Positions 1 to 24,875 of a DNA stretch of 32,000 bases are shown here, one piece after another. A program made the position numbers and the translations under genes. The stretch is from NCBI RefSeq assembly GCF_051307035.1, contig NZ_CP195536.1:1140001-1172000 (forward strand). Direction: 5' to 3'. Numbering within the stretch: position 1 is the first letter of the stretch; every line of letters starts with the position of its first letter. Under the pieces are notes generated by a model. The model was not told the origin of the DNA and did no database searches. It worked only from the letters and a program-made list of their open reading frames with translations. The DNA comes from Psychrobacter sp. DM4 (GTDB lineage: Bacteria; Pseudomonadota; Gammaproteobacteria; Pseudomonadales; Moraxellaceae).

Positions 1-1
1 G

Positions 2-283: not shown

Positions 284-301
284 ATTAAATATTAATAAGA
301 A

Positions 302-2955: not shown

Positions 2956-3019
2956 TTATCGAAATTGAACTATGACTTAATACTGACATAAGCGGCCATT
3001 ATACAATCACGCTAAATCT

Positions 3020-3071: not shown

Positions 3072-3141
3072 AACGTTATACCGAGTTCATTTAGATAGAG
3101 CATAGTTAAACCAATTTTGATTGGTATCTAGAACATCTTAG

Positions 3142-6087: not shown

Positions 6088-6154
6088 TCAAGCTAAACCC
6101 TGTGTTCTATGTGTCTTACTCATAGTTAAAGTCCATCGCCATAACCCTATATAT

Positions 6155-6300
6155 TCCAAAACGTCTGAAATTCCCATAAAAAAAGGCTTGCCGTATTGCT
6201 ACGAACAAGCCTTTTTTCTTTGTACACTATAAATATGGTAGGTCCAGTATTAACCATGCGATATTATTAACTTGTTAATTTAAAATAATTTATCTAAAAA
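6155..6300. repeat. Copy A of a ~145-bp imperfect direct repeat (terminator-like hairpin plus conserved tail)
   Basis: It aligns with 12241-12390. The shared core is ccataaaaaaaggcttgccg.a..gct.cgaacaagcc....tctttgtacactataaatatggt.gg.ccagtat.aacca, followed by a similar AT-rich tail. The hairpin is ggcttg (6185-6190) with caagcc (6206-6211), plus an inner stem cgta with tacg. It has an A-run upstream and a T-run downstream, so it is a bidirectional terminator just after the antiporter gene. Confidence 0.8.
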
Positions 6301-6700
6301 AACTTTTGATGATACCAAAAATTCATTATGGTTATTAATCTAAATCAACGTAGTATAAAGTAAGAATATGAAAATATTAATTGTTATTGTTGTCACACCT
6401 CGCTCCAAAGCCCTGCATCTTCACAAGCTAGACAACTTTAATCAGTGTTCCTACCGTGCATTCCTTATTCTATCTAATACTAGTACTTTGCTAAAGCATT
6501 TCGCGATATTTACCGTCATCTATCCCAGCTTGTTTTGGCCGATATTCACCAGTTGCAGCGTCTTTTGTTTGACAAGAGCACGCTATATCCGATCTCGCTT
6601 GACCATATGATTCAATAGATGTTTAGTATTTTTGAGAGTCAAACCAAATCAATCTATTATCGACTATTGACATCCGACATGAATTTAAAAGGAGATTATA

Positions 6701-6937
6701 ATGAAAAACATTATGAATGGGTATATCGCCGTTATCGGCTGGACTTTATTATCGCTGCTAGCAATCGTACTTAGCGTTGATATGATAAGTGTTTATGTTA
6801 GTACCCAAGGATATATGGAGGTGGCAAGCAGCGCAGCAGTGACCGTACCATTGGTTGCCGCACTTGCAATAACTACTATCATCGTCGGTGCTAGATATTA
6901 TCCTACCAACCATAGCTCGATTGATGATTATCTTTAA
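6701..6937 (+). CDS. Small hypothetical membrane protein (two predicted TM helices)
   Basis: A strong Shine-Dalgarno (aaaggagattataATG) precedes it. The 78-aa product has two hydrophobic stretches, IAVIGWTLLSLLAIVLSV and VTVPLVAALAITTIIVGA. I recognise no homology. Confidence 0.5.
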   Translation: MKNIMNGYIAVIGWTLLSLLAIVLSVDMISVYVSTQGYMEVASSAAVTVPLVAALAITTIIVGARYYPTNHSSIDDYL

Positions 6938-6992
6938 CCTTAAGGTGTTGATTGGCTTTTTGATATCTAACTACATCACTTATAGTCATCAC

Positions 6993-8588: not shown

Positions 8589-9265
8589 TAGAGTACCAAC
8601 TGATAGCCCCTGCCGCGAATAGCTTTGATAGACTCATCATGAAAAGGCTGAAGTTTTTTGCGCAGGCGGGATACATGCACATCAAGACTACGATCAAAGG
8701 GCTGTAGCTCACGCTGTAGTACAGTTTGTGAAAGCCACTCTTTACTAGCAACCTCACCTTTTTGCTGTAGCAATGCTACTAGCAGATCAAACTCAGTACC
8801 CGTTACTTGTAGCTCACTACCATCAATAGTACAGACACGATGCCTTTGATCTAAAGTCATTCGATCATGAGTGAGGACAGGGGTATCTACTGAGAGTACA
8901 GTCGTGCGCTTGATAACAGCATTGATTCGTGCCAGCAGCTCGCGAGGATTGCAGGGCTTGGCAATGTAATCATCAGCGCCAAGCTCAAGACCAATAATAC
9001 GATCAATCTCATCGCCTTTTGCCGTCAGCATAATCACTGGAATTTGACGCGTAGCTGGCAGTTGCCGCAATACGCTAAGTCCATCTATTTTGGGCATCAT
9101 AATATCGAGCACAAGTAGATCGTACTCATAAGCGGTATCTTGTAATCGCTCTATCACTTGCGACCCATCATAGACGCAGTCGCAGCTGACCCCATGATTA
9201 TGCAAATACTCTTGCAGCAATTGAGTCAGCTCTTCGTCATCATCACCAAGAAGTATATGAGTCAT
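8588..9265 (-). CDS. OmpR-family response regulator (CpxR-like)
   Basis: The receiver domain has DDD...D (LLVLDIMMP) and MLTAKG...GADDYIAKP. The C-terminal winged-helix effector domain has VHVSRLRKKL...IKAIRGRGYQLV. It closely resembles my recollection of CpxR across the receiver domain. Confidence 0.9.
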   Translation of the reverse strand: MTHILLGDDDEELTQLLQEYLHNHGVSCDCVYDGSQVIERLQDTAYEYDLLVLDIMMPKIDGLSVLRQLPATRQIPVIMLTAKGDEIDRIIGLELGADDYIAKPCNPRELLARINAVIKRTTVLSVDTPVLTHDRMTLDQRHRVCTIDGSELQVTGTEFDLLVALLQQKGEVASKEWLSQTVLQRELQPFDRSLDVHVSRLRKKLQPFHDESIKAIRGRGYQLVL

Positions 9266-9409
9266 AACAGGGTCCTAAGTTTTTGATAAAAGATTGCTTA
9301 TTAGCATACTGTTTTTTTGATGTACTCATATTGCTAAATTCAATGAAGCTATGCGTACATTTAGGGCATCAAGTAAGTTTACAAGAGATAAAGGTTTAAT
9401 AGTGTCAAT

Positions 9410-9447
9410 CGTAACCTTTCTTAAAGTTTCACAAATCTACGTAACAC
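9410..9447 (+). promoter_or_regulatory. Copy 1 of a conserved 38-bp upstream motif (candidate regulator-binding site or promoter element)
   Basis: cgtaacctttcttaaagtttcacaaatctacgtaacac is 32/38 identical to 10675-10712. It lies ~110 bp upstream of the disrupted lipoprotein gene, in the divergent region next to the response-regulator gene. TATTAT sits 7 bp downstream. Confidence 0.45.
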
Positions 9448-9555: not shown

Positions 9556-10540
9556 ATGATCAAAAACAGGGCTAACGATCGCTTTGATGGTAGAATCTTT
9601 AACGGCTTGTAGCAACGATAAAGCAGTTAGCCCTACATCCGTAACGTCTACTAGCGATGTAAAGCCATGAAATACGATATATAGGGGAACCGCTTCAGTC
9701 TCTCAAGGCGCATCGACTATAAGTATACCCTCGCTATACGAATGCAATAATGGTAGAAATGCTCCCATTGTTCAGAGTCAAGGCACTGACGGCAAACTAT
9801 GGACACTACCCGCTGAGATGAACTTTACAAATAGCCGCTTTCCGTTTGCTTACGATCTAAATAACCCTTGTACAGGTGTACGCTACGCCTCAGCTACAGA
9901 GGCTCGCGATGCGCTAAACCCATCTGATATGATTGAGATTGATGCCGATGGTGAAGTCATCACGGCCGACATCTTTGCCGATGACTATTTTGAGATGTAC
10001 GTTAATGGCATATGTGTCGGTAAAGACAGTGTGCCTTTTACTCGATTTAATTCTAACGTGGTACAATTTAAGGCCAAAAAGCCCTTTACAGTGGCGACGA
10101 AACGGGTTGATTGGGAAGAGAATAGGGGTATTGGTTCAGAAAGCAATCGAGGGCAGTCTTATTATTCAGGTGATGGCGAGGTAGTTACGGTATTTATGAA
10201 TACCGATAATGAAATCGTTGCCAAAACTGACGATAGCTTGAAAGCGTAAACCTTTTACAGCGCGTCTATTCGGAATCTGAGCTGTGTCACCGAAAAAGAC
10301 GCGTTACGTCTGACAAAAAATTGCTCAACTGAAGGCAGTAATGATGGCACGCAAGATTATACATTGCACTGGCAGCTGCCTGACAATTGGTATGCGCAAG
10401 ACCTTAATGATAGCGCTTGGCCTAACGCTACCGTATTTACAAATGATGAAATTGGTGTCGATAATAAGTCCGCTTATACCGACTTTGTCGATAACCCAAT
10501 AACGACGCACGTTTTATATAGTCAATCAATGTCATATTAG
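9556..10540 (+). pseudogene. Disrupted lipoprotein gene (frameshift plus at least two in-frame stops)
   Basis: ATG 9556 is out of frame by 1 nt with a lipoprotein signal sequence (..KTGLTIALMVESLTAC/SNDK, Cys codon at 9608). Removing one A from the run 9562-9566 restores MIKTGLTIALMVESLTACS. The same frame then continues through TGA 9668-9670 and TAA 10247-10249 with protein-like sequence on both sides. It ends at TAG 10538. A further frame switch near 10498 gives ..NNDARFI*SINVILDNEVIVRHTV.. running to 10617. Confidence 0.65.
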
Positions 10541-10634: not shown

Positions 10635-10674
10635 TGCGTTATTTATAAATACTAAATCAAGCTCTAGCAGCAAA

Positions 10675-10712
10675 CGTTACTTTTCTTAAAGTTTCATAAA
10701 GCTACGCAACAG
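10675..10712 (+). promoter_or_regulatory. Copy 2 of the conserved 38-bp upstream motif
   Basis: cgttacttttcttaaagtttcataaagctacgcaacag is 32/38 identical to 9410-9447. TATACT sits 10 bp downstream. The motif is 58-115 bp upstream of the possible starts of the next ORF. Confidence 0.45.
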
Positions 10713-11583: not shown

Positions 11584-12240
11584 GTGGTCTTACCAATCTT
11601 GTTTGTGCATATATGCTAAGCTGTCGTCAAAGCTCTTTAAATTTATTAAGACAGATCTGTTTGCTGCGATTACTAATCTGACTAATGGTAAACACGAGAA
11701 TGTAAAACTTGCGAAAACTAATTACGCTACACAAGACTCAATATTTGTTCTACCAATTATTCAGGGTAAAAACCCTGACATTCATAAAGCCACCTGACCA
11801 ATATTTTTTAGTGCTTTACTTTATATGTACTACGAATACTAGCTTAAAGCGTTTATAAACACATTCTTCTTATATTTTGGTTGATACCAGCATGTTTGTA
11901 AATGACTTTCATGAACCCACAATATCAAAAGTAATGACATCTAGTAACTCTCATATTATAGGTATAAATCAAACTGAAATAACCACTACATTGCATACCA
12001 TCTGAGTAGAAATGTAGCATCCAAAGTAGCTCTAAGTAAGCTGTTCTCGCTGCTTCCAGTTCTTATGACTCAAAGACATGCGCTTAAGTAAGTCGCGTCT
12101 TTATCTCCAATCAGACAGCTTGATTCTACTTAATTAGTATCTTAGGTTTGGGAGGGTTACCCTAGCTTTCAAGACAGATAATTAATTACTTAAATTTACT
12201 CTTTTGCTCAGTTTATATAGTTCACCATATACTAAGACAT

Positions 12241-12390
12241 TCCTAAAACTTCTAAAAATTCCATAAAAAAAGGCTTGCCGCATCGCTGCGAACAAGCCTG
12301 ATTTCTTTGTACACTATAAATATGGTGGGCCCAGTATCAACCACATAAATATTCCAAGTTATTGATTTAAATATTTTTATTTAAAAATAT
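12241..12390. repeat. Copy B of the ~145-bp imperfect direct repeat
   Basis: It aligns with 6155-6300. The hairpin is ggcttg (12272-12277) with caagcc (12293-12298), plus an inner stem cgca with tgcg. On the minus strand TTTTTTT follows the hairpin, so it can act as the terminator downstream of the seven-gene minus-strand operon. Confidence 0.8.
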
Positions 12391-12642
12391 TTTTTCTTAT
12401 ACCAACGGTTATACCAACAATTGAATCGAATTATAGATCGATTTTCCAGCCAATATTACAGTATGTTTGGTCTTAAAATTAATTGTTATTTATTGTTAGA
12501 TATAAGTAATATGCTAATTGAAGAATATAAATTATTCTAACGCTACCTTAACATCATTCAGATAATATGTGGGGAAGGAAAATGCTAAGAAGTCATGTAT
12601 ATATTCTTACCCCATAGTGGTAGGTAGTGAGTAAAATATTGT

Positions 12643-14490
12643 CTATTCTAGTGAGAATTTAATATTCCAACGACCAGCTTCCTTATATTCACCTTTAGCA
12701 TTCAATTTAAAATATCGGTTCTTATCAGCATCTGAGGTTAGCTGATAGGTTACACCACATTGCGAGTTTAAGCATTGCGCGATAAAGGTACGATTGGTTG
12801 CTCTTGGTTCAAATGTGGATAGTTGATGACATAAAGGGCAGTGCTTCAAAACTGCTACTTCTTGATTTTTTTCTAGCAGACTCGCTTTATCTGTATGACG
12901 CAAGTAGCTTTCAATTTCTTTTTTACTATTAATAGATAACTCATTTATTAATTGATAGCTACTGGCGTTCTTATAGATACTATTAGTCTCTGCTAGACTT
13001 TGTAGAGCACGACTGGAGATTTTATTAAATGGTAGGTCACTGGCATATCCTGTTAATATGTCAACGTATAGCCATTCTAGCAGTCGAGTAATAAGGCGCT
13101 CGGTAGCCATAAAATTAAGTGGATTAGCTAGTATCGCATTGTTTGTGACAGGCTTATTCTCTGATAGGTCAATCTTTGACTCTAAAAGATGAATAACGAT
13201 CAGATGGGGATTACTTTTTATATCATGATTTAAGGTATCATCAATTTGATTGGCGATGGAAATAATATTTAATAGGTTTTTCGAATATGTATGAGTCAAA
13301 CGCCAGTTATGTGTTTGTTGATCGACTTCAACAGTTACTTGCCAGTTAAGTTCATCGTTTGCTAGAAGTATACTACCAGTAGTTTTTTTAATAGTATTAA
13401 AATTCAACTCTTCGAGTGCCCTTAATAAAATTAACAAAGCATATTGATTGTACTCTTCTTGGAACTGGCGCTTTTTTTCCAACGCTTTAATTAAATCTTT
13501 CACTTCTTGAGACTGTTTATTGAGTTTTGTCCATAAAATACCCACATGTCTATAGTGTTGGTCATGCATCAAGATATTTGTCTTGTGCAACTGGTTTGAA
13601 ATATTCTTATGGGCTTGAGGGATTTTTAGGTAGAGTCCAAAACTTTGTAATCTAGTTATGTTATCTTGCAATGCTAAGTTTTTTTCACTAATTGTCATTA
13701 GCTCTTTGCGTTTTTCGGCGGATTTTTCATCACTGAGATTGCTTGCCCATAAACTACAAAGAAGGCTGGTTAGTTTGTAATAGCTTTCATGCGCTTTATC
13801 AAGTTGTAGGGCATCATCAATATTATTGATTTGTTCCTCTAGTTCTCTAAGTCGTTGTTGTAAAAATAGCATGACCCTATCGAGTAGTCTTGAAAAAACT
13901 TTATTTTCATATATAGAGTAGTTATCGTCACTAATTTTAGCTAAAAGTTTTCTAGGATACACGCCTGCTAAAGTACGCCTTTGCCAAGTCTCGGAATGCA
14001 CAGCTAAATAACGATGAGCTTTATTAGATATCTTCTTTGCTCGGCTAACATCAATTAACTCTTCATCGTAACGAATATCAAGTCTAGGCTGGTAGGCTAT
14101 TTGATGTAAATGACCTGTTTCCAATACGTCGAACAAAGATTGTTCAAAATCGTTCAATTTAGCAGTGTCCTCGAACACTTTCTCAGGCACAAGTGGGCTA
14201 GGTAGAGGAGTCAATTCATCCTCTGCTAGCCATAATGCCAATTGTAAGGCTATATGTTCAATTGAACGACTCATTGTACTTGTTATCGCTGGATCTAGGC
14301 ATAGTACAGAATCTGCGTCATCTATCACAAAGTGCCCTGTACTATCACAGAAAAGAATAGTATAAGCATCTACTTCAAAACGTCGATTGTAAGTAAATGG
14401 GCGAGTATTCACATATCTTTGTGGAATTACAGAAGTAATTATAGGTAATGTGGATAATGAGACGATATCGCCTGTAATTCTATCAAGCAT
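12643..14490 (-). CDS. McrC-like partner protein (DUF2357-like region, possible degenerate PD-(D/E)xK core, C-terminal zinc ribbon)
   Basis: The 615-aa ORF starts 3 nt after the stop of the McrB-like gene. DDNYSIYENKVFSRLLDRVMLFL resembles the conserved YEN(R/K)+hydrophobic helix of McrC/DUF2357-type proteins. Candidate nuclease residues are ..NQIDD..(about 20 aa)..LIVIHLLESK, a hydrophobic strand followed by E-x-K. The C-terminus has CPLC-x18-CLNSQC. Confidence 0.5.
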   Translation of the reverse strand: MLDRITGDIVSLSTLPIITSVIPQRYVNTRPFTYNRRFEVDAYTILFCDSTGHFVIDDADSVLCLDPAITSTMSRSIEHIALQLALWLAEDELTPLPSPLVPEKVFEDTAKLNDFEQSLFDVLETGHLHQIAYQPRLDIRYDEELIDVSRAKKISNKAHRYLAVHSETWQRRTLAGVYPRKLLAKISDDNYSIYENKVFSRLLDRVMLFLQQRLRELEEQINNIDDALQLDKAHESYYKLTSLLCSLWASNLSDEKSAEKRKELMTISEKNLALQDNITRLQSFGLYLKIPQAHKNISNQLHKTNILMHDQHYRHVGILWTKLNKQSQEVKDLIKALEKKRQFQEEYNQYALLILLRALEELNFNTIKKTTGSILLANDELNWQVTVEVDQQTHNWRLTHTYSKNLLNIISIANQIDDTLNHDIKSNPHLIVIHLLESKIDLSENKPVTNNAILANPLNFMATERLITRLLEWLYVDILTGYASDLPFNKISSRALQSLAETNSIYKNASSYQLINELSINSKKEIESYLRHTDKASLLEKNQEVAVLKHCPLCHQLSTFEPRATNRTFIAQCLNSQCGVTYQLTSDADKNRYFKLNAKGEYKEAGRWNIKFSLE

Positions 14491-14493
14491 ATA

Positions 14494-16938
14494 TTAGACT
14501 CCACTTAACCTTTCTATATCCTGCTCTAAAAGATAACTACTCTCTTCAGGGACATCCGATAAACCTAAGGTCTCCCATATCCGTAGTAAGCTATCGTTGA
14601 TATCCTCAATCTTATCAGAACGTGTATCATATCGACCACAGACTTTACCAATACGGAATACTTTAGTAGCTAACAAATGGTCAAGTGCTTCTGCCATCGT
14701 GCCACCGCAAGCCATATAGACAGGAATAAACTTACGAGCTTGGTTTTGCAAGCGATTACCCCAGCTAACTTTAATTTTAAGTAGGTTTTTTTGCAATTCG
14801 CTCTCTAATAACAACTCGAATATATCATCGACATCTGACTGATGTTTTGTAATAGCTTGTTCAAAACGTTCTATCAAACTGCTATAGGAGTATTGAGTAT
14901 TGTCCACCGTATTATCGAAAGTAAGTTTCTCACTTCTGTGTATTTCCATAACGTGGGCTCTATCATAGGTTTTGTCAGCAAACTCTTTGGTTGTTTCATC
15001 GTGGTTTGCAGTGCCTATAAACCATACATTTTTAGGTATCTCTAAGGTCCGACCATTTTTAAATAGCAAGGGTGCATCATGATGTGAGCTATCTAATAAG
15101 TTTATTTTTGCGATATCAGAAGTTTCTAATAGAGACAAAAAGTCAGCAAAATACTGTTCAGGTTGAGACAAATTCATTTCATCTAACAAAATTATTTGTA
15201 GAGTGTTCTGAAATCGCGGTTGTTGGGCACGGTATAAAGCTTGTAATGCTTCTTTGGCATAGAATTTTTTCTCAAACGCGTTATAGTGACCTAATAAATC
15301 TTCTCTATCACGCCAGCCTGCTTGTACTCGAATCACCTCGCAATAAAGTTCATTATCATTATCGGGTGGGTTATTAATCGCTTTTGCAAAGGCTCGAGCT
15401 AAGCTAGTCTTACCTGTACCAGAGATACCTTGCAAAATATGTAGCTTGCTCATTGACAGTCCAGCAATAAATAGCCGTATGTCTTTATTAGTATAATAAA
15501 GACCTTGATTGGCAATGCGGGCACGCATAAGGTTTGAGAATTCCTCTAAGCTTGGCACGGCTTGCAAGCCACTTGCTAGACTACTGAATTTTTCATCCAT
15601 GTCACTAAGTAGCGAAAATGGTAGTGCGCCTTTTTGAGCATCTTCTAAGTCATCAATCTGACTTTTTAATTGTTCAATACTAATATTCAGCACTCTTTTA
15701 TGTTCTTCTAATATTCGTTTTTCTTGTAGCAAGTTTTGACGTTCAAGCGCGCTTAATCGAGTGTTATTAAGTTCACTCTGAGCCTGGGCATAGCTTGCTT
15801 TTAAGTCTTCTAATTGACTTAGTGTGTCATCTAATCTTTCTTCTAATCTTTGATTATCTTCTATTAATCCATCTTCATAACGTTCACTTAGTTCATGCTT
15901 AAGCTCTCTATTCTTCTGTCTAAGTCGGTTTAGTTCTTCTTGAACGTTATTGATACCATCGTTGGTTAGTTGGCGCTTTAAATCCTCAAATTGAGCATTT
16001 TCTTGTGCCATTCTATCTATCTCGTCAATTGCCTTTCTTTTACTCTCTATAAGCGCTTTGTTTTCAGCGGCTAATTGAGTTAGTTTTGCTTCAAACTGCC
16101 GATGAATATGGCTTTTCAGTACATCGTTTTGAATGTCTAACTGTGCTTTCGTTTCTTCTAATTCAGTTTGCGCCAGTTTAAGTGCGCTCTCCTGTTCGAC
16201 TAAATCTAACTTTTGCTTTTGTAAGGCTTTGTTGTCATTTTCTTTTCTAGCGTGTAATTCTTTTAGTAAATCCTGCTCTAAATTATTGGCTCTAAGGGTC
16301 AACTCTTCTTCTATCAATGATATTTGTTGTTCACGCTCTCTAAGCTGGTTATCTTTATCATAAATATTTTTTAATCGTTGTTCTATTTGAGCTAGAGATG
16401 TTTTCTGTAGTTCACTTAGCTCTTTATTTTTGACTTGTAGCGCTTCTTGTTTTTGACTTGCAAAACCTAATTCAGCATTAATTTGTTGCTCTTCTAAAAC
16501 AGATAACTGCTTTCGAAGCTCAAGCTGTTCTGTTTTTAAACTTTTCTTTTCTTCTAGTAACTGCTGACGTGCGTTGTCAACCTCTGTTTGCCGTTGAGCT
16601 ATTGATGCATTGTCTTCGTCAAGTTTGGTCTTTTGACGGTATAGATCGCTCTTTTGTTGTTCTAGAGCTTCAAGCTCTTCATTTAGAAGAGTGCTTTTAC
16701 TTTGGTATTCAGCCGAGTCTTGCTTGTATTGCTGTTCAGCTTCAGTATAAGACTCTAGGTCAGCTAGCATCTTATCTCTAAGCTCATTATCCTTTTCCAA
16801 TAACATTTCTTGTTCTTTATTGACAATCGAACCTGTAACACTTTTTAGAAGCTCTGATATTTTTGTAACCTCTTTATTTGCACTAGGGCTAGGAATTTCA
16901 GACTTTACATGGTTATTTTTTCTGTTCTTTCTTGCCAT
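14494..16938 (-). CDS. Coiled-coil protein fused to a McrB-like AAA+ (AAA_5-type) NTPase
   Basis: Residues ~25-445 are an uninterrupted E/K/Q/L-rich heptad-like sequence (nt ~15604-16866). Walker A is GISGTGKT (nt 15406-15429) and Walker B is QIILLDEMNLSQPE. NVWFIGTANHDETT aligns with the McrB segment GLMNTADRS. The gene is followed by a McrC-like gene. Confidence 0.7.
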   Translation of the reverse strand: MARKNRKNNHVKSEIPSPSANKEVTKISELLKSVTGSIVNKEQEMLLEKDNELRDKMLADLESYTEAEQQYKQDSAEYQSKSTLLNEELEALEQQKSDLYRQKTKLDEDNASIAQRQTEVDNARQQLLEEKKSLKTEQLELRKQLSVLEEQQINAELGFASQKQEALQVKNKELSELQKTSLAQIEQRLKNIYDKDNQLREREQQISLIEEELTLRANNLEQDLLKELHARKENDNKALQKQKLDLVEQESALKLAQTELEETKAQLDIQNDVLKSHIHRQFEAKLTQLAAENKALIESKRKAIDEIDRMAQENAQFEDLKRQLTNDGINNVQEELNRLRQKNRELKHELSERYEDGLIEDNQRLEERLDDTLSQLEDLKASYAQAQSELNNTRLSALERQNLLQEKRILEEHKRVLNISIEQLKSQIDDLEDAQKGALPFSLLSDMDEKFSSLASGLQAVPSLEEFSNLMRARIANQGLYYTNKDIRLFIAGLSMSKLHILQGISGTGKTSLARAFAKAINNPPDNDNELYCEVIRVQAGWRDREDLLGHYNAFEKKFYAKEALQALYRAQQPRFQNTLQIILLDEMNLSQPEQYFADFLSLLETSDIAKINLLDSSHHDAPLLFKNGRTLEIPKNVWFIGTANHDETTKEFADKTYDRAHVMEIHRSEKLTFDNTVDNTQYSYSSLIERFEQAITKHQSDVDDIFELLLESELQKNLLKIKVSWGNRLQNQARKFIPVYMACGGTMAEALDHLLATKVFRIGKVCGRYDTRSDKIEDINDSLLRIWETLGLSDVPEESSYLLEQDIERLSGV

Positions 16939-16942
16939 AGTG

Positions 16943-18487
16943 CTATGCCTTATCAGTTAATTGGTTTAAGTAATTTTGAACCCATTGAGTTGTAAATTTT
17001 GCCAGATCGAGCGCTGTACTTTGGGTAATATCAGTCTTTGGCCCGTCATGCGAGCTTTCATTACGGTAATCACATATTTGACTTAAAAATAGCAAGTCAG
17101 CATCTAAATCATCGGTAAGTAGCAATGGGTGATTAGAGTAATCAGCAATTGCTAGAATATTTGCCGTTATAATAGGCTTTAAAGAGCTATAGATAGTGGG
17201 GTATTTACCCGTTGAAAAACCTATAGCTGACTGTACCGCTCTAACATTACAAGTAGAGAAAGGTTCTAGACTCTCATCTAGAGCTCTGTTATTTGCTCGT
17301 AAAATTAGAGCTTGCAATAAGAATTTTTTATCTGAGGAGTAGGGCAGTATCTTATTATGTTGATGTGGGTAAGTGGTCAAAACATGTTTAAAGCAAGCTT
17401 CTAATGACTTTTGAGATTGCAATAATAAGTCATCGATATCTGCGCTATAGTTATGTTCTTCGAGATATTTTTGTCTGCGCAATAGTTTAGCGAGATGCAT
17501 ATCGAGATTATCAATCTCATTAACATTTGGATATGACGATAATATTTCAAAACGCATTTCTTCTTGTAAATGCGCCTCAAACTCTTCAATGCTTTGTTTG
17601 TCAGACTGATCAAGCCCCATAAATCGTTTAACTTTACTTGCAAAGGGTTTGTTACCCTGTGCTATGCTGTCATGTAAGTGGATAATCCAGTCATCAGATT
17701 GAGTAATATGTAATGGGTCTTGAAGCTGAGAGAAATGCTTTGTATCTATACTGTGCTGTAGATGAGTAAGGATAAAGTATGGTGTGGGTTGCTTGCTGGC
17801 AATATCAAAGTTACCAAGATTGATATTAGAAGTGGCAGTTTTTTTTGAGTCATTACTACGGTTACGTAATCTACCACTGGCTACGGCTCTTTTATATAGT
17901 TCAAGTGCTTGCCTAAACTCATTCTTAGTTGGTTTGGTAAAATGATATTTTTGAGAGGTATTTACGATAAAAGGTTCAATGTTTTGTCCTGTGTTTCGAT
18001 CCGCTTTGATAGTAACGCTATGGTCGTTCTTAACAACATCTAAGTAATTTAGCTTATGTGCGACAACACGAGGCCAAAGATGACCGTCAATAGCATCTTG
18101 AATAATATAACCCAGTTGTGTCTTATAAGAGGGCGTAGCTGTTTTATCTAGTGCCTGCCAGCCCAATGGTGTAAGATTTATAATGCCCTTGTCACTATTC
18201 ACGTAACCACGATTAAAAAGTTCATTTATGATAATATCAACAAGTTCAGCATCAATATTTAGCCATTGACTCATTTGCATGCGATCACGCTTGTTATACT
18301 TTAACAGCTCAAGAATGGTACGTTGAAAAAAGTTGAAGTTATCTTCTTTGTCCGCGATGGGGGTTATTACTTCCCACAGCCAGACTGGAAGAAATGCCAT
18401 GTTATGTCTATCATTGGTATTTAGATCCTTCATATCGCTATTGCTATAGAAAGATAGGTAATTATCAGAAAATTTGTCCATAATCAC
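16943..18487 (-). CDS. wHTH-like N-terminal domain protein with a C-terminal HEPN-type putative RNase domain
   Basis: The R-x4-H HEPN motif is present as ICDYRNESSHDG (R475-H480; nt 17048-17065) within a predicted helical C-terminal region. The N-terminal FQRTILELLKYNKRDRMQMSQWLNIDAELVDIIINELFNRGYV...LTPLG looks like a winged helix. The gene overlaps the helicase gene by 23 nt. Confidence 0.55.
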   Translation of the reverse strand: MIMDKFSDNYLSFYSNSDMKDLNTNDRHNMAFLPVWLWEVITPIADKEDNFNFFQRTILELLKYNKRDRMQMSQWLNIDAELVDIIINELFNRGYVNSDKGIINLTPLGWQALDKTATPSYKTQLGYIIQDAIDGHLWPRVVAHKLNYLDVVKNDHSVTIKADRNTGQNIEPFIVNTSQKYHFTKPTKNEFRQALELYKRAVASGRLRNRSNDSKKTATSNINLGNFDIASKQPTPYFILTHLQHSIDTKHFSQLQDPLHITQSDDWIIHLHDSIAQGNKPFASKVKRFMGLDQSDKQSIEEFEAHLQEEMRFEILSSYPNVNEIDNLDMHLAKLLRRQKYLEEHNYSADIDDLLLQSQKSLEACFKHVLTTYPHQHNKILPYSSDKKFLLQALILRANNRALDESLEPFSTCNVRAVQSAIGFSTGKYPTIYSSLKPIITANILAIADYSNHPLLLTDDLDADLLFLSQICDYRNESSHDGPKTDITQSTALDLAKFTTQWVQNYLNQLTDKA

Positions 18488-21400
18488 CTCGACATAGTTG
18501 GCTCATAGCTGTTAAAGATGGAATGTGTTGTTCTGTTAATGGATGCTCAGCTAACATTAAGTCACCTGCGATAATAATCAAACTTCTTTGTCGACTAAAA
18601 GCCACGTTAAGGCGATTATCTACACGCAAAAAGCCATAGAGCGAATTGAGTTGAGGTTCAGTCATCTCATAGCCCCTATTTTTTGTTACGGTTTTTAAGT
18701 CATTAGGTAGCGTGCGTACAAGTGACAATAACACCACATCAAACTCTTTACCTTGAAATGAATCTACTGTACCCACTCGCAAACGCTCATCACCTATATG
18801 ACTGCCTTTAGTCAGTTGTTGATAGTCAGGATGTACTTCGTTGTTTAGAATCAAATCAAGCTTTTGCATTTCTTGCATTAGAGCGCTTCTTTGATCTCCA
18901 TAAAAGGTGATCACACCGACACTTATTTCTGGATTTTCATCTAGAATGCGTTTTGTCTCTTGGGAAATCCAAATAGCTTCATTCATATTTCTTCTCTTAT
19001 TACCTTTTTGAGTACCTTCAATATGTTGCCAGTGACATACCATGCCTTCGTATCCAGATATGTCATGAATAAAGTCAGTAGTGGGTCTACCTGACTTAAG
19101 CTTAGATAGTCCGTGATTTTCGTAAAAATTTTTGCTAATAAAATCTCCAAGCACTGGATGCATACGGAATTGCTCATCAAGCATTACTACTCGTTTTGGT
19201 TGCCCGTCCTCTTTCTCTAGCTGGGTTAAGTTCTTTACCATTCTTTGAAATAAGCTGTCGCGTAGCATTTCGCTTTGCAAGCTGTCCCAGTCATCTTCTT
19301 CTACCATTTGGGTTTCCACGGCATCATCAAGCATATGCGGCAGTTGTCTATGATCTCCTACCAATACAATCCGTCTATTTGCCATAGCCATTGGTATCAT
19401 AAGATCTAATGGTGTGGCACGTGCAGCCTCATCCACAATGACATTTTCAAAGTTAATGTTGGAATCTTGGCTAAGTTGAGTTAAGCGTCTCATGTCTTGG
19501 CTGGCTGATTTTTGACAAGTGGCCGCATAGACAGAGGTATAGTGGGCGATTGTTTCGTCTACTTTGTTATCATCAGTAGCGACTGTTTCACGAAATTGCT
19601 TTAAAGCCAAAAGATACCCTAATGTATGCGACTCGCTAATTTTTTTAGTCATTTGAGTATCAAGTTCATCTAACCTATCGCAATCACTAGCAGTTAGTAT
19701 GCTTTGTATATTCAATGGTCTAAAGTCAGGTAAGCTCTTATCTAATAACGTATCTTTCAGTTGCTGTAATGGTATTAGATCAGCGTCTGAAGGAGGGGAG
19801 ATTTGCATATGACCAAAGTTATCTAATATTTGAAGTTTATCTTCTGATATGAGCTGAGTGTCTGGATTATCATTTTGTAATAATGTTAAGTAGGCGCTTA
19901 ACTCCGCGCAACGTTGGATTCCATCATCGGCAAAACTTGAAGCAGAGGTTCGAAGTGCCCAAATATTAGGTATACAGTTTTGTAATAATGAAGGAGAAAA
20001 GTAAGACTGCTCTAACGTAAAGCCTTCCCACCATAAGCGCCAATCATGAGACGGTACAATATGATAATACGTATTAAAGTCTGTCAAGATTCGGTTGATC
20101 TCTATTTTACTGCGCTCTTTTATATCTCTAGCACCCAAACGCAAGTTTAGGGTTGCATGCTTTAATGAATCGAGTAACGTTAATGCATAACAATCGTCTA
20201 TTTCTTGAGTTAAAACATCCTTTGTAGAGTTACGCCATTTTTGGATGGGCAGATTAACGTCTTTTTGTCCTATGTTGTCTTGATACTTGCTACCAACACG
20301 TAGACCAGGTAAGCCTAATACCTGTGTTCGGCTGTTGGCATTATCAACTGCATCATGTTGATAGCTCGTTAACAGGATGGAACGTTGAACAGGCGTGTTA
20401 TCCTTTGCTTTTTCTTCTACGATTCGCTGTTGAATAGCGGCGATGACTTGTGTCTTTCCTGTACCGGGCGGTCCGATAATAACAGTAATATCAGCACTGT
20501 TTAAAGCCGTTTCAATGGCTTGTTGCTGTCTACGAGTAGTCGGGCCCGCTTTGAATAGAGCTTTTACCTGTGGACTATGCCATCTTAATTTGCGAGACTG
20601 TTTGATAGTGGGTACAGCAATACCTTGCATTAAATAGTCTAAACTTGGCATTGGATTATGATGATGACTAATTTGCTCTAAGGCTAGAACCTGACGTTGG
20701 CGTTGAACCTGAGTTGAATAAATTGATAAAAATAGAAAGCTATTACCGTGTTTATCGGTAGGTTTTTTTTTCTCACGAAATCCTGTGTATTTAACAGTCA
20801 AGTATCCTGCATCACTGTCAATATCAACAATTTCACATTTCCAAGGTTCTTCTAGAGCTTTCTTGTGGTCAGTTTTACTGCTATTCTCAGGGCTGCTGTT
20901 ACTTAGCCAATCTGGCAATGTTGATGCTATTTGGAATACCTGTTCTTCTTTCTCATTATTCTGAATACTCACCTGTAATGCTTCGGCAAATTTCTTTAAT
21001 TGCTCTTTGTTTACACTAAGACGAGACAAATTTTGTTGCTCTAGAATTTTGTCATCTAGTATCTTTAAATAGTTAAATTTTTGCGCATTTATGGCAACTT
21101 TTTGCCATTGTAGATCACTATATTTTTGCCATACTTTGATATAGTTACCATGGGTGTTTTTACTATCTTTGAGCGCAGTTTTATAATGAGGCTGATTGAG
21201 CTTTTGCGCCTGAGAGTTATCAAAGAAAACAATATTACCCTGTATCGCGCTTAATTCAATATTATCACTATGTGGATTAAATGGTCTGATTCTTTGTATA
21301 TTCCATTGGTTATTTGATACTTTAATATCAAGGATATGTGCTTTACCTACTAGGCTTAAAGTATCATCAGTGGAATTTTGATTTAGGAAGGTTATAAATA

Positions 21401-21869
21401 GTGCTGTAGTATAAGAATGAGAAGTATCTATAAATGATACATTCTCAGTGATTAGAAAGTTCTCTTCTAACCATACTATAGCTAAATTGACGTCATTATC
21501 TCCAATATGTCTTTGGTTTTTAAGTTGCTCAACGATGTATTCGCTGACACCAAGATTAAAGTCTTCCCCGTCTACTCGAACTATTTCATCTTTAAGGGGT
21601 GTTGCCATTAGCCAAAGTGCATCGGCCTCTTGTTTGACTAATGACCACAATAGATTGTGCTGTTGAATATATAGTCTGGCATGAACAGCTGTCTTATCAG
21701 CAGACTGTATATTCTCTAGGGTAGTTACAGTGCTATCTTGAGCTAAGTATAGAGATTCGCCTTCTATCCATACGTTTACTGGTTTTTCCTCTATCAATCT
21801 GACACTATCATCAATGAGGGTTACTTCAAACAACTCACTGGAGTTGATTCTAAGTTCAAATAAGTTCAT
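18465..21869 (-). CDS. Superfamily 1B helicase, Upf1/DNA2-like (AAA_11/AAA_12 type), with a ~450-aa uncharacterised N-terminal region
   Basis: - **Motif I:** IIGPPGTGKTQV (nt 20451-20474 encode GPPGTGKT).
- **Motif II:** VIVDEAARATP.
- **Motif III:** VLVGDHRQLPH.
- **Motif IV:** LDEQFRMHPVLGDFISKNFY.
- **Motif V:** VGTVDSFQGKEFDVVLLSLVR.
- **Motif VI:** NRLNVAFSRQRSLIIIAGD. Confidence 0.85.
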   Translation of the reverse strand: MNLFELRINSSELFEVTLIDDSVRLIEEKPVNVWIEGESLYLAQDSTVTTLENIQSADKTAVHARLYIQQHNLLWSLVKQEADALWLMATPLKDEIVRVDGEDFNLGVSEYIVEQLKNQRHIGDNDVNLAIVWLEENFLITENVSFIDTSHSYTTALFITFLNQNSTDDTLSLVGKAHILDIKVSNNQWNIQRIRPFNPHSDNIELSAIQGNIVFFDNSQAQKLNQPHYKTALKDSKNTHGNYIKVWQKYSDLQWQKVAINAQKFNYLKILDDKILEQQNLSRLSVNKEQLKKFAEALQVSIQNNEKEEQVFQIASTLPDWLSNSSPENSSKTDHKKALEEPWKCEIVDIDSDAGYLTVKYTGFREKKKPTDKHGNSFLFLSIYSTQVQRQRQVLALEQISHHHNPMPSLDYLMQGIAVPTIKQSRKLRWHSPQVKALFKAGPTTRRQQQAIETALNSADITVIIGPPGTGKTQVIAAIQQRIVEEKAKDNTPVQRSILLTSYQHDAVDNANSRTQVLGLPGLRVGSKYQDNIGQKDVNLPIQKWRNSTKDVLTQEIDDCYALTLLDSLKHATLNLRLGARDIKERSKIEINRILTDFNTYYHIVPSHDWRLWWEGFTLEQSYFSPSLLQNCIPNIWALRTSASSFADDGIQRCAELSAYLTLLQNDNPDTQLISEDKLQILDNFGHMQISPPSDADLIPLQQLKDTLLDKSLPDFRPLNIQSILTASDCDRLDELDTQMTKKISESHTLGYLLALKQFRETVATDDNKVDETIAHYTSVYAATCQKSASQDMRRLTQLSQDSNINFENVIVDEAARATPLDLMIPMAMANRRIVLVGDHRQLPHMLDDAVETQMVEEDDWDSLQSEMLRDSLFQRMVKNLTQLEKEDGQPKRVVMLDEQFRMHPVLGDFISKNFYENHGLSKLKSGRPTTDFIHDISGYEGMVCHWQHIEGTQKGNKRRNMNEAIWISQETKRILDENPEISVGVITFYGDQRSALMQEMQKLDLILNNEVHPDYQQLTKGSHIGDERLRVGTVDSFQGKEFDVVLLSLVRTLPNDLKTVTKNRGYEMTEPQLNSLYGFLRVDNRLNVAFSRQRSLIIIAGDLMLAEHPLTEQHIPSLTAMSQLCRGDYGQIF

Positions 21870-21875
21870 TTATAT

Positions 21876-23321
21876 CTACCAGATAAAACGCCAAAAAAAG
21901 TATGAAGTATTGTCAGTACTGCTAGAGGAAGATGATATTTTTAGTGTATAAAAATCATTTCGTTTAATTGCTATTTTTAGTAAACGAGTCTTTTTAATAT
22001 CTACTGTTTTATTATCTTTTAGCCTGATAATTGTAATAGTTTCATTATTTTTTGGTGTTATATGAAGGCCGTCATCAGTGAGCTTAAGTTCACACCAAGG
22101 TGATAGTTTTGTTAAGTCAAAGCGGCTGTAAGGTTCGGTATACAGATATTTGTCATAATTCAAGCTAATGATTGAAGTATTATGACAGTCTATATCTTGA
22201 CTACTAGTATCGTCTATTTGTTCAGTCGTATAAAAGAACTGTGATATGGATAAGGAGTATGGTTCGTTAGACTCACCACAAAAAAAGCATTGCCTATCAT
22301 TATTAGCGACAAAACTACTCTGAAAATGCTCACCTTGACAGGGCTGATGTTGACAGTACATTAGTATCTGAAGCGTTTTATTTAGTTCGTGGTGCCATTC
22401 ATTCATACTAGGCCTAAGGTATAGGCCACTACGTAGTCTACTATCAGCAAAACAACGTTTAAACAGTTCAAATAGGTCATCATTAATTAATTCATTCAGT
22501 GGCATACCTGCGCCATTGTGCTCATTACTATCATCTTCTGGATCAAATATCCAAGCGTAAGCTCCTTGTTCAACTTGCTCATCGACCACATCGGAATCTT
22601 CATCATCATAAGCATCTTCCACACCGATACCTTCATTATATGGATGATTATGAGCAAGTAGTTGCTGTGCTATGACAGCAAAAGCCCAACAGTCTGTCCA
22701 AGAACTGTTTTCTGACTCATTTCTTAGGACTTCTGGAGCGCCATAGCCAGGCGTGTAGTAAGAAGCAGCGTGCGAACTTTCCTGCGTTTTGATATTGTCA
22801 GCATCTATCAGCCACACCTCATTATGATCATAAGATGTAGACACATAGATATTGTCTGGTGATAAGTCGCCATAACACAAGCCTTTGCCATGAAGCTGGG
22901 CTAACGTTTGGGCTAGTTGTATTAATAATTTTATCCGTCTGGCTAATCCACCAGTGTCACGATAAGCGTCTGCCATGCTAACGTTGATAGAACTATCTTG
23001 AATACGCTTTATTTGCTGAGTAAGCGATTCGAGGTTATCCATTAACTCCATGACATAGCCGACACGATTTTTTAATTTAAGTACGGCTATAGGTAGAGCG
23101 ATATTTAAATCTCGTATGGGCCTACGTACCACCCATTGTATTTTTGCAAATTCTTGATGTCTTTTGACGTCACTATCTATAGGGTTGGTTATTTTTACAA
23201 TCAGATTATGATGATTGGTAGTGAATACTTGACCTTGCCCGCCTTGCCCAAGTTTGCTTGTTAATTCGTAGACGGTGCCATGAGTATCTTTAACTTCCTT
23301 ATTCTTTTGTGCTACTGCCAT
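21876..23321 (-). CDS. Ser/Thr protein kinase (Hanks-type) with a C-terminal zinc ribbon and an extra C-terminal domain (TerY-P kinase component)
   Basis: - **Gly-loop:** LGQGGQGQVF (nt 23226-23249).
- **Lysine strand:** LIVKI.
- **Catalytic loop:** YGDLSPDN (nt 22851-22868 encode DLSPDN).
- **DFG-equivalent:** LIDADN.
- **APE-like:** GYGAPE.
- **Zinc ribbon:** CQHQPC-x16-CFFC.
- **C-terminal region:** ~140 aa, beta-rich and of unknown function. Confidence 0.85.
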   Translation of the reverse strand: MAVAQKNKEVKDTHGTVYELTSKLGQGGQGQVFTTNHHNLIVKITNPIDSDVKRHQEFAKIQWVVRRPIRDLNIALPIAVLKLKNRVGYVMELMDNLESLTQQIKRIQDSSINVSMADAYRDTGGLARRIKLLIQLAQTLAQLHGKGLCYGDLSPDNIYVSTSYDHNEVWLIDADNIKTQESSHAASYYTPGYGAPEVLRNESENSSWTDCWAFAVIAQQLLAHNHPYNEGIGVEDAYDDEDSDVVDEQVEQGAYAWIFDPEDDSNEHNGAGMPLNELINDDLFELFKRCFADSRLRSGLYLRPSMNEWHHELNKTLQILMYCQHQPCQGEHFQSSFVANNDRQCFFCGESNEPYSLSISQFFYTTEQIDDTSSQDIDCHNTSIISLNYDKYLYTEPYSRFDLTKLSPWCELKLTDDGLHITPKNNETITIIRLKDNKTVDIKKTRLLKIAIKRNDFYTLKISSSSSSTDNTSYFFWRFIW

Positions 23322-24027
23322 GTTGTTTTTTCCAAATAATTACCCCAATACTTTTATCATCACTATGATGAGGGGTTTGCCAATTATTGAGCTCATTAAT
23401 TAGGTATTTCTTACCTTGACGAGGGCTAATAGCTATGAATTTACCAGACAGAAAATCTAAAAATTGTTGAGGCTTATCTATATCATCACTAATTCCATCT
23501 GTCATTAATGTAATTGTGGCACCAAAATCTAATTGAATTTCTCGGTAAGTCCAATCTTGCCAACGTATTGAATATCCTAAAGCAGTTGTTTCATTACCAA
23601 ACATATTGTCAGATTTTTCATGATTAACGCCGAAAGTATCTGTCATATAGTAAATAGCACCGTCACCTAGCTGAAAAAGCCTTACTTTCCCTGAGGAGTC
23701 TCCCCAAGCAAACAGGCATGTTGTGGCGGCATCTTTAGGAGAGGTACGAGGAAGATAATCTTTCAAGTACATTAGCCATTGCTGGTATATTCTTTTTACT
23801 ACACTTTTTTCAGGCTCATTAAAATTGGTCTCACGTAAGGTAGTACACACTGCTTTACACGCAAGATATGAGCCAAGGGAGGCATAAGGACGAGAACCCA
23901 TACCATCACAAACGACTACTAACCAATGAGCACGCCAAACACGCTTCAAAATAGCATCTTGATTACGTTTAGATTCACGATGGTTTTTTGGCCCTCGAAC
24001 AGTAGCTATAGATATATTTACATTCAC
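23299..24027 (-). CDS. PP2C-family Ser/Thr protein phosphatase (TerY-P phosphatase component)
   Basis: PP2C metal-binding blocks are present: RNQDA, VVVCDGMGS, LMTDGISD and DDKSIGVI. A GTG start overlaps the vWA stop by 1 nt (TAGTG). The 3' end overlaps the kinase start by 23 nt. Confidence 0.8.
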   Translation of the reverse strand: MNVNISIATVRGPKNHRESKRNQDAILKRVWRAHWLVVVCDGMGSRPYASLGSYLACKAVCTTLRETNFNEPEKSVVKRIYQQWLMYLKDYLPRTSPKDAATTCLFAWGDSSGKVRLFQLGDGAIYYMTDTFGVNHEKSDNMFGNETTALGYSIRWQDWTYREIQLDFGATITLMTDGISDDIDKPQQFLDFLSGKFIAISPRQGKKYLINELNNWQTPHHSDDKSIGVIIWKKQHGSSTKE

Positions 24028-24710
24028 TAGTCGAAATCACTTAGGTCAAGCTCATCGTCTGTGGATATATCATTAAAATCTATCTTATTAATTTGATTTG
24101 GCTTTGTGCTACGAGATCGTAAAGTGACGCTCATGCTAACTGCTCTAAAAAATCTAGAAATGTCTTTAGCATCATGTGCTTTGAACACCGGCGTTTCAAG
24201 GTCATTAATAAATTGTTTTAACATATGTATATTAGCATCTGCTCCAATACCCATTGCCATTCTTACGGCTTTGCTGGCACGTTCAGATTCTTGTAATTCG
24301 ACAAAGGGTTGTTCCCAATTATCTGTAGGGTTGCCATCAGACACCAACACTAGAGTAGGCTTGTATGCTCGACTTGGTATGAGCTCTTTGTCTTCTAACA
24401 ATTCTTTTGCCATTGTCATTGCACTACCCATGGGAGTACCGCCACTTGCTACTAAGTCTTGCATACCTGATATTTCATCAGCTGAAGTTAGAGGTAATAT
24501 CATCGAAGCATTCTCCCCCCCAAATGCGATGATAGCGACTTGGATAACTGCATTGAGATGGCTTTCTTTGCCAAACGATATCAGCATGTCTTTAAGTGCT
24601 AAATTCAGAGCTTCCATTTTTCCATCTATACTCATACTACCGCTAGTATCTGCCAAAATAATAACTGGTAGAGGACGTGGCTTAGCAGCTGCGAATTCGC
24701 GCATTGCCAT
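24027..24710 (-). CDS. TerY-like von Willebrand factor A (vWA) domain protein
   Basis: The MIDAS motif DTSGS is at nt 24636-24650. Downstream are GGTPMG and LVSDGNPTD. The size (227 aa) and layout are typical of TerY-type vWA proteins. This is the first gene of the operon. Confidence 0.85.
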   Translation of the reverse strand: MAMREFAAAKPRPLPVIILADTSGSMSIDGKMEALNLALKDMLISFGKESHLNAVIQVAIIAFGGENASMILPLTSADEISGMQDLVASGGTPMGSAMTMAKELLEDKELIPSRAYKPTLVLVSDGNPTDNWEQPFVELQESERASKAVRMAMGIGADANIHMLKQFINDLETPVFKAHDAKDISRFFRAVSMSVTLRSRSTKPNQINKIDFNDISTDDELDLSDFD

Positions 24711-24875
24711 AATTATTTCCTTACATTAGACGAGATTTATTGCACTATCCTACTGTCTAATCTTACAGAGGTAAAGCAGTTTATTAAGACTTTCTCGAGC
24801 AAATATTTTTAAATGTTATTGTCAACTTGCACATAAACTAGAATGGTTTTAGCTATGAAAAGTAACGAGCCAGCA

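Follow-up and report, generated by a model that had tools for sequence, protein, structure and literature searches.

A seven-gene operon of Psychrobacter sp. DM4 is probably a complete Type II CoCoNuT with a predicted HEPN effector

What does a bacterium gain, and what kind of system does it carry, when a TerY-P triad (vWA protein, PP2C phosphatase and kinase) is built into the same block as a helicase, a HEPN protein and a pair of McrBC-like proteins? Such a block lies in a stretch of 32,000 nucleotides from the chromosome of Psychrobacter sp. DM4 (contig NZ_CP195536.1, positions 1,140,001 to 1,172,000 of the forward strand), which was analysed as a whole and is called the window here. We consider it very probable that the locus forms a complete defence system of CoCoNuT (coiled-coil nuclease tandem) Type II, the HEPN domain being its effector, and it is a further copy of an already described system, not a new kind of system. 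The genes follow each other on the minus strand in the order terY(vWA)-PP2C-STK(ZnR)-cnuH-cnuE-cnuB-cnuC, where STK(ZnR) is a Ser/Thr kinase with a zinc ribbon:

24027 to 24710, minus strand: vWA protein (TerY-like), 227 residues, first gene of the TerY-P triad
23299 to 24027, minus strand: PP2C-family Ser/Thr phosphatase, 242 residues, its GTG start sharing 1 nucleotide with the vWA stop
21876 to 23321, minus strand: Ser/Thr kinase with a zinc ribbon and a C-terminal region of about 130 residues, 481 residues
18465 to 21869, minus strand: CnuH, UPF1-like SF1 helicase, 1134 residues
16943 to 18481, minus strand (from an ATG; the longest reading frame starts at a GTG at 18487 and has 514 residues): CnuE, winged helix and HEPN
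14494 to 16938, minus strand: CnuB, coiled coil and McrB-like AAA+ GTPase, 814 residues
12643 to 14490, minus strand: CnuC, McrC-family protein (DUF2357), 615 residues
24711 to 25058, minus strand: non-coding stretch from the vWA start to a transposase remnant, the presumed promoter region of the operon

A preliminary description had reported seven co-directional open reading frames (ORFs) on the minus strand, and our ORF listing returned identical coordinates. Its account of the junctions stood for the 1 shared nucleotide, the 23-nucleotide overlap of the PP2C and kinase genes and the gaps of 6, 4 and 3 nucleotides. The overlap between cnuH and cnuE, which it gave as 23 nucleotides, is more likely 17, because a GAGGTG Shine-Dalgarno sequence precedes the cnuE ATG at 18481, distant CnuE homologues align from query residue 3, and RefSeq annotates a form of 512 residues. 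With CnuE read from this ATG, each of the seven proteins is identical to a RefSeq protein of Psychrobacter sp. DM4, two of these entries being named 'hypothetical' while the others have generic names, such as 'vWA domain-containing protein' for the vWA protein. Since five of the seven gave significant profile matches and the remaining two belong to homologue families of 71 and 239 matches, the ORFs are not chance reading frames. The motifs that had been quoted (DTSGS, the PP2C blocks, the kinase Gly-loop, YGDLSPDN with D152, the helicase motifs, RNESSH, GISGTGKT and LLDEMN) are all present in the translations, and they are invariant or nearly so across 67-71 orthologous loci of other species. 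From the packing of the genes, together with their synteny, we infer that the block is read as one transcript with coupled translation. Promoter and terminator scans of positions 12000-25900 gave counts at or below the shuffled expectation and neither support nor oppose a single transcript; an AAGGAA ribosome-binding site lies 8 nucleotides before the vWA ATG. Rfam and tRNA scans of the window returned no match. Two antisense ORFs, one inside the vWA gene (24106-24729, plus strand, 207 residues) and one inside cnuB (15072-15377, plus strand, 101 residues), are most likely mirror-frame artefacts.

The criteria that separate CoCoNuT Types II and III-A were set out by Bell, Sahakyan, Makarova, Wolf and Koonin (eLife 2024; PMC11090510). 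In Type II, CnuE is an elongated winged helix-turn-helix (wHTH) protein with one RxxxxH HEPN, and CnuC consists of a short beta-sandwich, a DUF2357 domain with a coiled-coil insert, an inactivated PD-(D/E)xK fold and a zinc ribbon with two to three CPxC-type pairs, with neither CSD nor Hsp70. In Type III-A, CnuE has two HEPN domains (RxxxxH and a C-terminal RxH), and CnuC is fused to Hsp70-like nucleotide-binding and substrate-binding domains and HEAT repeats and is without nuclease fold or zinc ribbon. A TerY-P triad with a zinc-ribbon kinase is frequent in Type II and is not counted there as core. The locus in the window has the same seven genes as Type II in the published order, with tight junctions and cnuE overlapping cnuH. 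It shares the zinc-ribbon kinase, a CnuH with a large insertion after Walker A, a CnuE with a wHTH and one RxxxxH HEPN, and a CnuB with a coiled coil and an NxD GTPase. As read from its family and its structure model, CnuC would likewise have the DUF2357 core and the helical insert, together with a zinc ribbon, and it is without conserved catalytic residues; no architectural departure from the type was found. That a TerY-P triad is joined here to a UPF1-like helicase, a wHTH-HEPN protein, a coiled-coil McrB-like GTPase and a McrC-family protein, as had been proposed, is borne out by profile, structure and homologue searches. Membership of the CoCoNuT class, which the preliminary description had suggested, is likewise supported by the invariant NxD-E signature, the coiled coil on the GTPase and a BLASTP match of CnuB to a published Type I-A CnuB (1e-26). 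The subtype is a different matter: the description had named Type III, and because CnuE has a single C-terminal RxxxxH HEPN and CnuC is a zinc-ribbon protein of 615 residues with no Hsp70 or HEAT part, we assign the locus to Type II and not to Type III-A.

The question of whether these genes belong together was addressed by scanning one genome per species (representatives of 185,579 species), which gave 112 loci encoding a CnuC relative, of which 80 were retrieved; synteny was counted in the 69 loci, one per species, for which at least 9.2 kb of upstream sequence was available. All seven genes were found in the same order and on the same strand in 61 of the 69, so that the co-conservation of the block in other genomes, which had been suggested as a check, is observed. 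In the remaining eight, CnuE was not detectable at an E-value of 1e-5 (three loci), the vWA gene lay outside the fetched flank (three), or only cnuBC was present (two). Junctions of -1 or -4 nucleotides are the commonest between vWA and PP2C, PP2C and kinase, and cnuB and cnuC of the orthologous loci, and cnuE usually overlaps cnuH. The lengths of the window proteins equal the family medians, and the NTPase, kinase and phosphatase sites of the block are strictly conserved. The proteins of Psychrobacter and Acinetobacter are divergent, their CnuC being 25-40% identical to those of other genera.

CnuB links the block to McrBC. It matches Pfam AAA_5 and PADLOC PDC-M26A (5.8e-39), the sequence matches of its AAA+ domain in the PDB are to McrB only, and a profile of the orthologous GTPase domains recovers E. 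coli McrB with an E-value of 1.4e-5 at PDB-sized Z. Walker A (GISGTGKT), Walker B (LLDEMN) and a T-A-N-(H/Q)-D-E motif, which reads TANHDE in the window copy, are invariant in 71 orthologues, and N645 aligns with the signature N of McrB. According to Bell et al. (PMC11090510), the NxD signature, a shorter form of NxxD after which E or D usually stands, marks the CoCoNuT-bearing branch of McrB GTPases. CnuB is without the helical insert between Walker B and NxD that is the mark of Type I-A. Its N-terminal part is read as a coiled coil on the basis of composition and profile matches: residues ~36-424 match the coiled coils of myosin rod, SMC and Spc110 proteins, and residues 51-450 hold 5 Pro/Gly and consist to 68-80% of E/K/Q/R/L/A/D. 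The heptad-register score of this region gave no convincing separation from shuffled sequence.

In CnuE, the R475/H480 pair of the RNESSH motif (numbering of the 514-residue form) is invariant in 48 homologues, down to about 20% identity, and is kept in 66 of 67 syntenic orthologues. It forms the single conserved RxxxxH, 34 residues from the C-terminal end, and no other conserved R..H motif was found in the protein. Pfam wHTH-PRTase_assc is recognised in 38 of 48 family members, and the N-terminus matches that of PADLOC MkoB (3.6e-6, residues 47-283). The AlphaFold2 (AF2) model, with a pLDDT (predicted local distance difference test) score of 90.7, has an all-helical C-terminal domain, and Foldseek returned MarR-type wHTH proteins with a probability of 1.0 and Csm6 with a probability of 0.66, none below an E-value of 0.001. 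When the CnuE profile was compared with the sequences of solved structures, the only match was a designed helical protein (E 0.078), which is uninformative for HEPN. As judged from the sequences, the HEPN domain of CnuE is the only recognisable nuclease in the block.

CnuC belongs to a family in which Pfam DUF2357, the McrC N-terminal domain, is found in 14 of 30 members, three of seven members scanned singly exceeding the gathering score, and these matches fall on the conserved core (126-215 and 304-320). Its confident AF2 model (pLDDT 84) begins with short strands, followed by a core of helices, very long helices spanning 194-361, an alpha/beta domain (365-455) and, at the C-terminus, a beta zinc ribbon, whose cysteines C551, C554, C573 and C578 are conserved in 76 orthologues. 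Within residues 365-455, the same 76 orthologues have no conserved D/E/K set and no conserved D...(D/E)xK; the sole invariant charged residue near this domain is E464, located in a helix, and at position 459 the window protein has N. Because conserved nuclease residues are missing, cutting of DNA by CnuC is predicted to be unlikely. This speaks against the earlier suggestion that the McrC-like protein might hit DNA, and it agrees with Bell et al. (PMC11090510), who call the nuclease inactivated in every CnuC of Types II and III. No Hsp70 or CSD Pfam match was obtained for any of the 30 family members. Residues 142-188 (13927-14065) have a pLDDT below 50, yet lie inside the most conserved block of the family, with R150, L162, W169, P179 and S187 invariant in the 76 orthologues. 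The model would fit a segment that becomes ordered only on binding a partner, plausibly the CnuB ring.

CnuH matches Pfam AAA_11 and AAA_12, the NCBIfam IGHMBP2 family (1.3e-30) and PADLOC MkoA (7.2e-86), and its closest solved structures are a '5'-3' RNA helicase-like protein' (8ftm), UPF1/NAM7, SEN1, DNA2 and SMUBP-2. In 68 orthologues, helicase motifs I, II, III, V and VI do not vary. About 340 residues separate Walker A (466-473) from Walker B (813-814), and because of this spacing we place a large insertion after Walker A; the AAA_11 match covers 399 residues against a profile of 257 positions. An N-terminal extension of about 440 residues precedes the helicase. PADLOC MkoA coverage begins at residue 142, and residues 1-140 were recognised by no profile library. 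For Type II, Bell et al. (PMC11090510) describe CnuH as a UPF1-like SF1 helicase whose Walker A is followed by a large helical insertion, and its N-terminus as an SmpB-like OB fold (SPB), a RelE-like (RTL) domain and an OB/stalk.

The three proteins at the 5' end of the block are recognisable as a TerY-P triad. The vWA protein matches Pfam VWA_2 (1.3e-11) and VWA (2.3e-9) as well as PADLOC TerY (1.6e-5), and its MIDAS motif D-x-S-G-S is retained in every orthologue with the N-terminus inside the fetched flank. The phosphatase matches Pfam PP2C_2 (2.8e-35), with D41, D122, D177 and the flanking glycines invariant in 68 orthologues. The kinase matches Pfam Pkinase (2.1e-16); its GGQG loop, D152, N157, D173 and D175, and the zinc-ribbon cysteines C323, C328, C345 and C348, are invariant in 69 orthologues. 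Past the zinc ribbon, residues ~350-481 (21876-22270) form a region of about 130 residues with no profile match, and the length of the kinase is kept among orthologues (median 477 residues). The Type II kinase is described with a zinc ribbon only, and the stand-alone TerY-P kinase has an OB fold at this place (Bell et al., PMC11090510).

Parts of the locus resemble several known systems, and the differences help to place it. The alignment of CnuB with E. coli McrB takes in Walker A, Walker B and the signature N, and in both cases the partner gene directly follows. In contrast to McrBC, however, CnuB has NxD instead of NxxD, a coiled-coil part of about 450 residues replaces the N-terminal DNA-reader domain, CnuC has neither detectable sequence similarity to E. 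coli McrC nor nuclease residues, and five extra genes are present; canonical McrBC (Type IV) is opposed by the absence of conserved catalytic residues in CnuC, the NxD signature and the coiled coil in place of the reader. Type I Mokosh is approached from the other side of the block: in PADLOC, the kinase corresponds to the MkoA N-terminus (5.3e-10), CnuH to the MkoA helicase and the CnuE N-terminus to MkoB, and because of these matches the kinase, CnuH and CnuE look like a split MkoA with a MkoB-type adaptor. Mokosh type I itself does not fit, as helicase and kinase are separate genes here and CnuE ends in a HEPN, not a PLD; these genes are, moreover, joined to vWA, PP2C and CnuBC. Automatic annotation could mislabel the locus as Mokosh, and the analogy is mechanistically useful. 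In the PADLOC collection (2023), no model recognises CnuC, and CnuB is labelled only as candidate PDC-M26A. A vWA protein with MIDAS, a PP2C phosphatase and a Ser/Thr kinase also follow one another in this order in the stand-alone TerY-P of Gao et al. 2020 and in the TerY-P triad described by Anantharaman et al. 2012; the kinase of the tested stand-alone system has an OB fold, whereas the one in the window has a zinc ribbon and its triad is the 5' part of a seven-gene block. Many Pseudomonas Type II loci reported by Bell et al. have an adjacent RtcR/CARF regulator or a BrnT-like toxin, whereas the locus in the window has neither and has a remnant of an insertion sequence (IS) upstream instead.

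Does a system of this architecture protect against phages? The preliminary description held that no member had been tested experimentally, which no longer applies. Obangsin (Obs; bioRxiv 10.64898/2026.04.06.716636), found in P. aeruginosa PMM16, is a Type II CoCoNuT whose seven genes run from obsA to obsG/cnuC. Cloned en bloc, it protected PAO1 and PMM3 against the single-stranded RNA (ssRNA) phages PP7 and LeviOr01 and against MPK7, a DNA phage, with no protection against MP29, and transposon hits in obsC and obsG abolished the phenotype, polarity not being excluded (10.64898/2026.04.06.716636). By gene order, obsC would be the kinase gene. A 2025 paper reports a 'CoCoNut Type II' cloned into PAO1, and every system of that study except JukAB made the host resistant to one phage or more. 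PAO1 was also protected by a three-gene 'TerY-P variant' from P. aeruginosa on its own; this variant may, but need not, come from a CoCoNuT locus. Anti-phage activity has thus been shown for homologous Type II loci of P. aeruginosa only, and for the locus in the window it is a prediction from homology.

How might the seven proteins work together? Following Bell et al. (PMC11090510), we propose that the AAA+ domain of CnuB would assemble a McrB-like, GTP-hydrolysing ring on which CnuC would dock via its DUF2357 core, including the conserved residues 142-188, and that the ring with docked CnuC would serve as a GTP-driven sensor or scaffold. CnuC, having lost its nuclease chemistry, may serve as an adaptor that binds nucleic acid with its inactive alpha/beta domain and its zinc ribbon. 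CnuH would bind CnuE via the winged helix and helical or coiled-coil parts and feed RNA to the HEPN RNase, the coiled coils joining the CnuB/CnuC and CnuH/CnuE halves. Through reversible phosphorylation, the triad of vWA protein, phosphatase and kinase would act as a switch on the RNase, either licensing or restraining it. As the output, viral RNA would be cleaved and, should this fail, possibly host RNA. Our confidence in any single step of this scheme is much lower than in the class assignment. Several observations weigh against the reading of the locus as a Type II CoCoNuT with a HEPN effector. RNA targeting, complex formation and a role for phosphorylation are what we infer for CoCoNuTs. 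Support for the HEPN fold is weak, the Csm6 match having the probability of 0.66 given above and HEPN_RiboL-PSP being found below threshold in 6 of 48 relatives. That Obs stopped a DNA phage as well can be accounted for by an RNA-only effector only in an indirect way. The CnuC of the window has no significant match in Pfam, PADLOC or NCBIfam and misses the DUF2357 threshold; hhalign and hmmsearch found no sequence similarity to E. coli McrC, CnuC showed none to Type I-A CnuC, and neither Foldseek nor the PDB sequences gave a significant match. Its place in the McrC family rests on the DUF2357 matches in its homologues and on its position after cnuB.

Considering these points, we asked how other explanations account for the same data. 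Type III (III-A) CoCoNuTs share TerY-P, CnuH, a wHTH-HEPN CnuE and a coiled-coil NxD CnuB with Type II, and the gene names are alike. What distinguishes Type III-A is not seen in the window: the only conserved HEPN motif is the RxxxxH at the C-terminal end of CnuE, where Type III-A has two HEPN domains, and CnuC has four conserved zinc-ribbon cysteines in place of the Hsp70/HEAT fusion, with Hsp70 matches in 0 of 30 family members; the CnuB of Type III-A also often has a C-terminal HTH. We regard a Type III-A locus as highly improbable. Restriction of DNA in the manner of Type IV systems, with CnuC as McrC-like nuclease and HEPN as accessory, would make use of the homology of CnuB to the McrB GTPase and of the DUF2357/McrC membership of CnuC, and it would account for the restriction of one DNA phage by Obs. 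It is, however, opposed by the lack of a conserved D...(D/E)xK in CnuC 365-455 across the 76 orthologues, by the inactivated nuclease that Bell et al. report for Type II and III CnuCs (PMC11090510), and by the protection that Obs gives against ssRNA phages, which have no DNA stage; we consider DNA-targeting restriction very unlikely.

It is also conceivable that two or three independent systems, namely TerY-P, a Mokosh-like pair and a McrBC-like pair, merely travel together as a stack. TerY-P-like triads act alone (Gao et al. 2020, as cited in PMC11090510), the three-gene variant protected PAO1 without further genes, PADLOC ties the kinase, CnuH and the CnuE N-terminus to MkoA/MkoB of Mokosh, two of the 69 loci have cnuBC only, and TerY-P is not core in the scheme of Bell et al. 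Against independent assortment stand the order and strand fixed in 61 of 69 species, stop and start codons that overlap at most junctions, and the transposon hits in obsC and obsG, each of which ended the Obs phenotype (with the reservation on polarity made above); in addition, cnuBC alone would be without an effector because the nuclease of CnuC is lost. A stack of systems is in our view unlikely, and we keep it at that level and no lower because the TerY-P variant protected on its own. Finally, the block might be a module for stress response or RNA quality control, acting in tellurite or metal stress or in ribosome rescue and not in defence, given that the earliest links of TerY-P triads were to tellurite resistance and metal sensing and that UPF1-like helicases act in RNA surveillance. 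Such a role is hard to square with the patchy spread (112 CnuC-relative loci among the representatives of 185,579 species), the location in an island of low GC next to an IS remnant and DISARM-like genes, the homology to the copy of Psychrobacter sp. Ps6 that stops about 320 bp past cnuC, and the direct anti-phage phenotypes of homologous loci, and we give it hardly any credence. The assignment to a Type II CoCoNuT remains the one that we prefer.

The operon of Psychrobacter sp. Ps6 is 98.4% identical to the window copy, with no indels, and its CnuC is 100% identical. Synonymous divergence between DM4 and Ps6 is 0.12 in cnuB (14494-16938) and 0.08-0.13 in codons 1-640 of cnuH (19950-21869), and it is at most 0.013 in the genes for vWA, PP2C, kinase, CnuE and CnuC and in the rest of cnuH; pN/pS lies at 0.07-0.34. 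The mosaic looks like recombinational replacement of cnuB and the N-terminal half of cnuH, not like relaxed selection. With synonymous divergence of CnuB and the CnuH N-terminal part about 10-fold above that of the other five genes in these two strains, we put forward as a tentative and rather doubtful idea that CnuB (coiled coil and GTPase) and the N-terminal ~640 residues of CnuH, as the parts most plausibly touching the invader or keeping the complex assembled, are exchanged by recombination as cassettes among operons that are otherwise nearly identical and set specificity, and that the kinase, CnuH and CnuE form a split Mokosh-type module.

Homology between the window and the Ps6 stretch ends at 12319, some 320 bp beyond the cnuC stop; the other ~9.7 kb of the Ps6 stretch have no match in the window. 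DM4 and Ps6 thus carry the operon in different flanks, and the end of homology is probably an island boundary. The operon sits in a low-GC island of the Psychrobacter chromosome, with a GC content of 33-40% as compared with 42-49% in several housekeeping kilobases of the left flank. On the other side of the operon, the following features were found:

25059-25601, plus strand: DDE transposase fragment, 180 residues (DDE_Tnp_1_3, 5.4e-24), about 350 bp upstream of the vWA start and pointing away from it
25865-26581, minus strand: DEDDh 3'-5' exonuclease-like gene (PADLOC DEDDh, 9e-19)
26887-27948: HNH protein, PtuB/Cas9-HNH-like (~1e-6)
28387-31284: SNF2 helicase, DrmD-like (DISARM; PADLOC 6.3e-96)

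For the transposase fragment we found neither an N-terminal partner ORF nor terminal inverted repeats that were convincing; it looks like what is left of an IS, and it may have taken the place of the regulatory region native to the upstream side of the operon. The exonuclease-like, HNH and DrmD-like genes are further genes of defence type, and a DISARM-like system may continue past the right end of the window. The ORF at 31281-32000, which overlaps the stop of the DrmD-like gene and leaves the window, gave no PADLOC match, and its reading as the N-terminus of a DISARM methyltransferase is unsupported. No RtcR/CARF gene was found in the window.

On the left, positions 1-9265 are ordinary chromosome with a BCCT betaine/choline transporter, a flavin monooxygenase, a Na+/H+ exchanger and an OmpR-type two-component pair; they also hold the C-terminal part of an ORF that by eye resembles a GMC-type oxidoreductase (choline dehydrogenase-like). 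The GC fraction of this flank reaches 0.49 in parts, above that of the operon. A direct repeat of 41 nucleotides, 85% identical, occurs at 9406-9446 and 10671-10711, each copy upstream of a small ORF. The small ORFs have no Pfam or PADLOC match:

9818-10249, plus strand: small ORF, 143 residues
10770-11195, plus strand: small ORF, 141 residues
11257-11583, plus strand: small ORF, 108 residues

Those with the 41-nucleotide repeat may be paralogues that share a regulatory site, placed between the two-component system and the CoCoNuT operon.

CoCoNuTs are a widespread and biochemically uncharacterised class derived from McrBC, and they have been proposed as the first relatives of Type IV restriction that act on RNA. 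The trigger, the RNA target, the role of phosphorylation and the way in which DNA phages are stopped are already being addressed with the P. aeruginosa loci. The locus of Psychrobacter sp. DM4 adds a complete, motif-intact Type II example from a cold-adapted genus as a comparative data point. Taken with its orthologues, it confirms what is immovable across about 70 species, namely the R/H dyad of the HEPN, the NxD-E signature, the four zinc-ribbon cysteines of the kinase and, in the DUF2357 core of CnuC, H127, R150, Y194-E195-N196 and D310. If the doubtful idea of exchangeable cassettes were true, the specificity of Type II CoCoNuTs would be set by swappable modules made up of CnuB and the N-terminal part of CnuH, and two defence families would fall into one mechanistic class.

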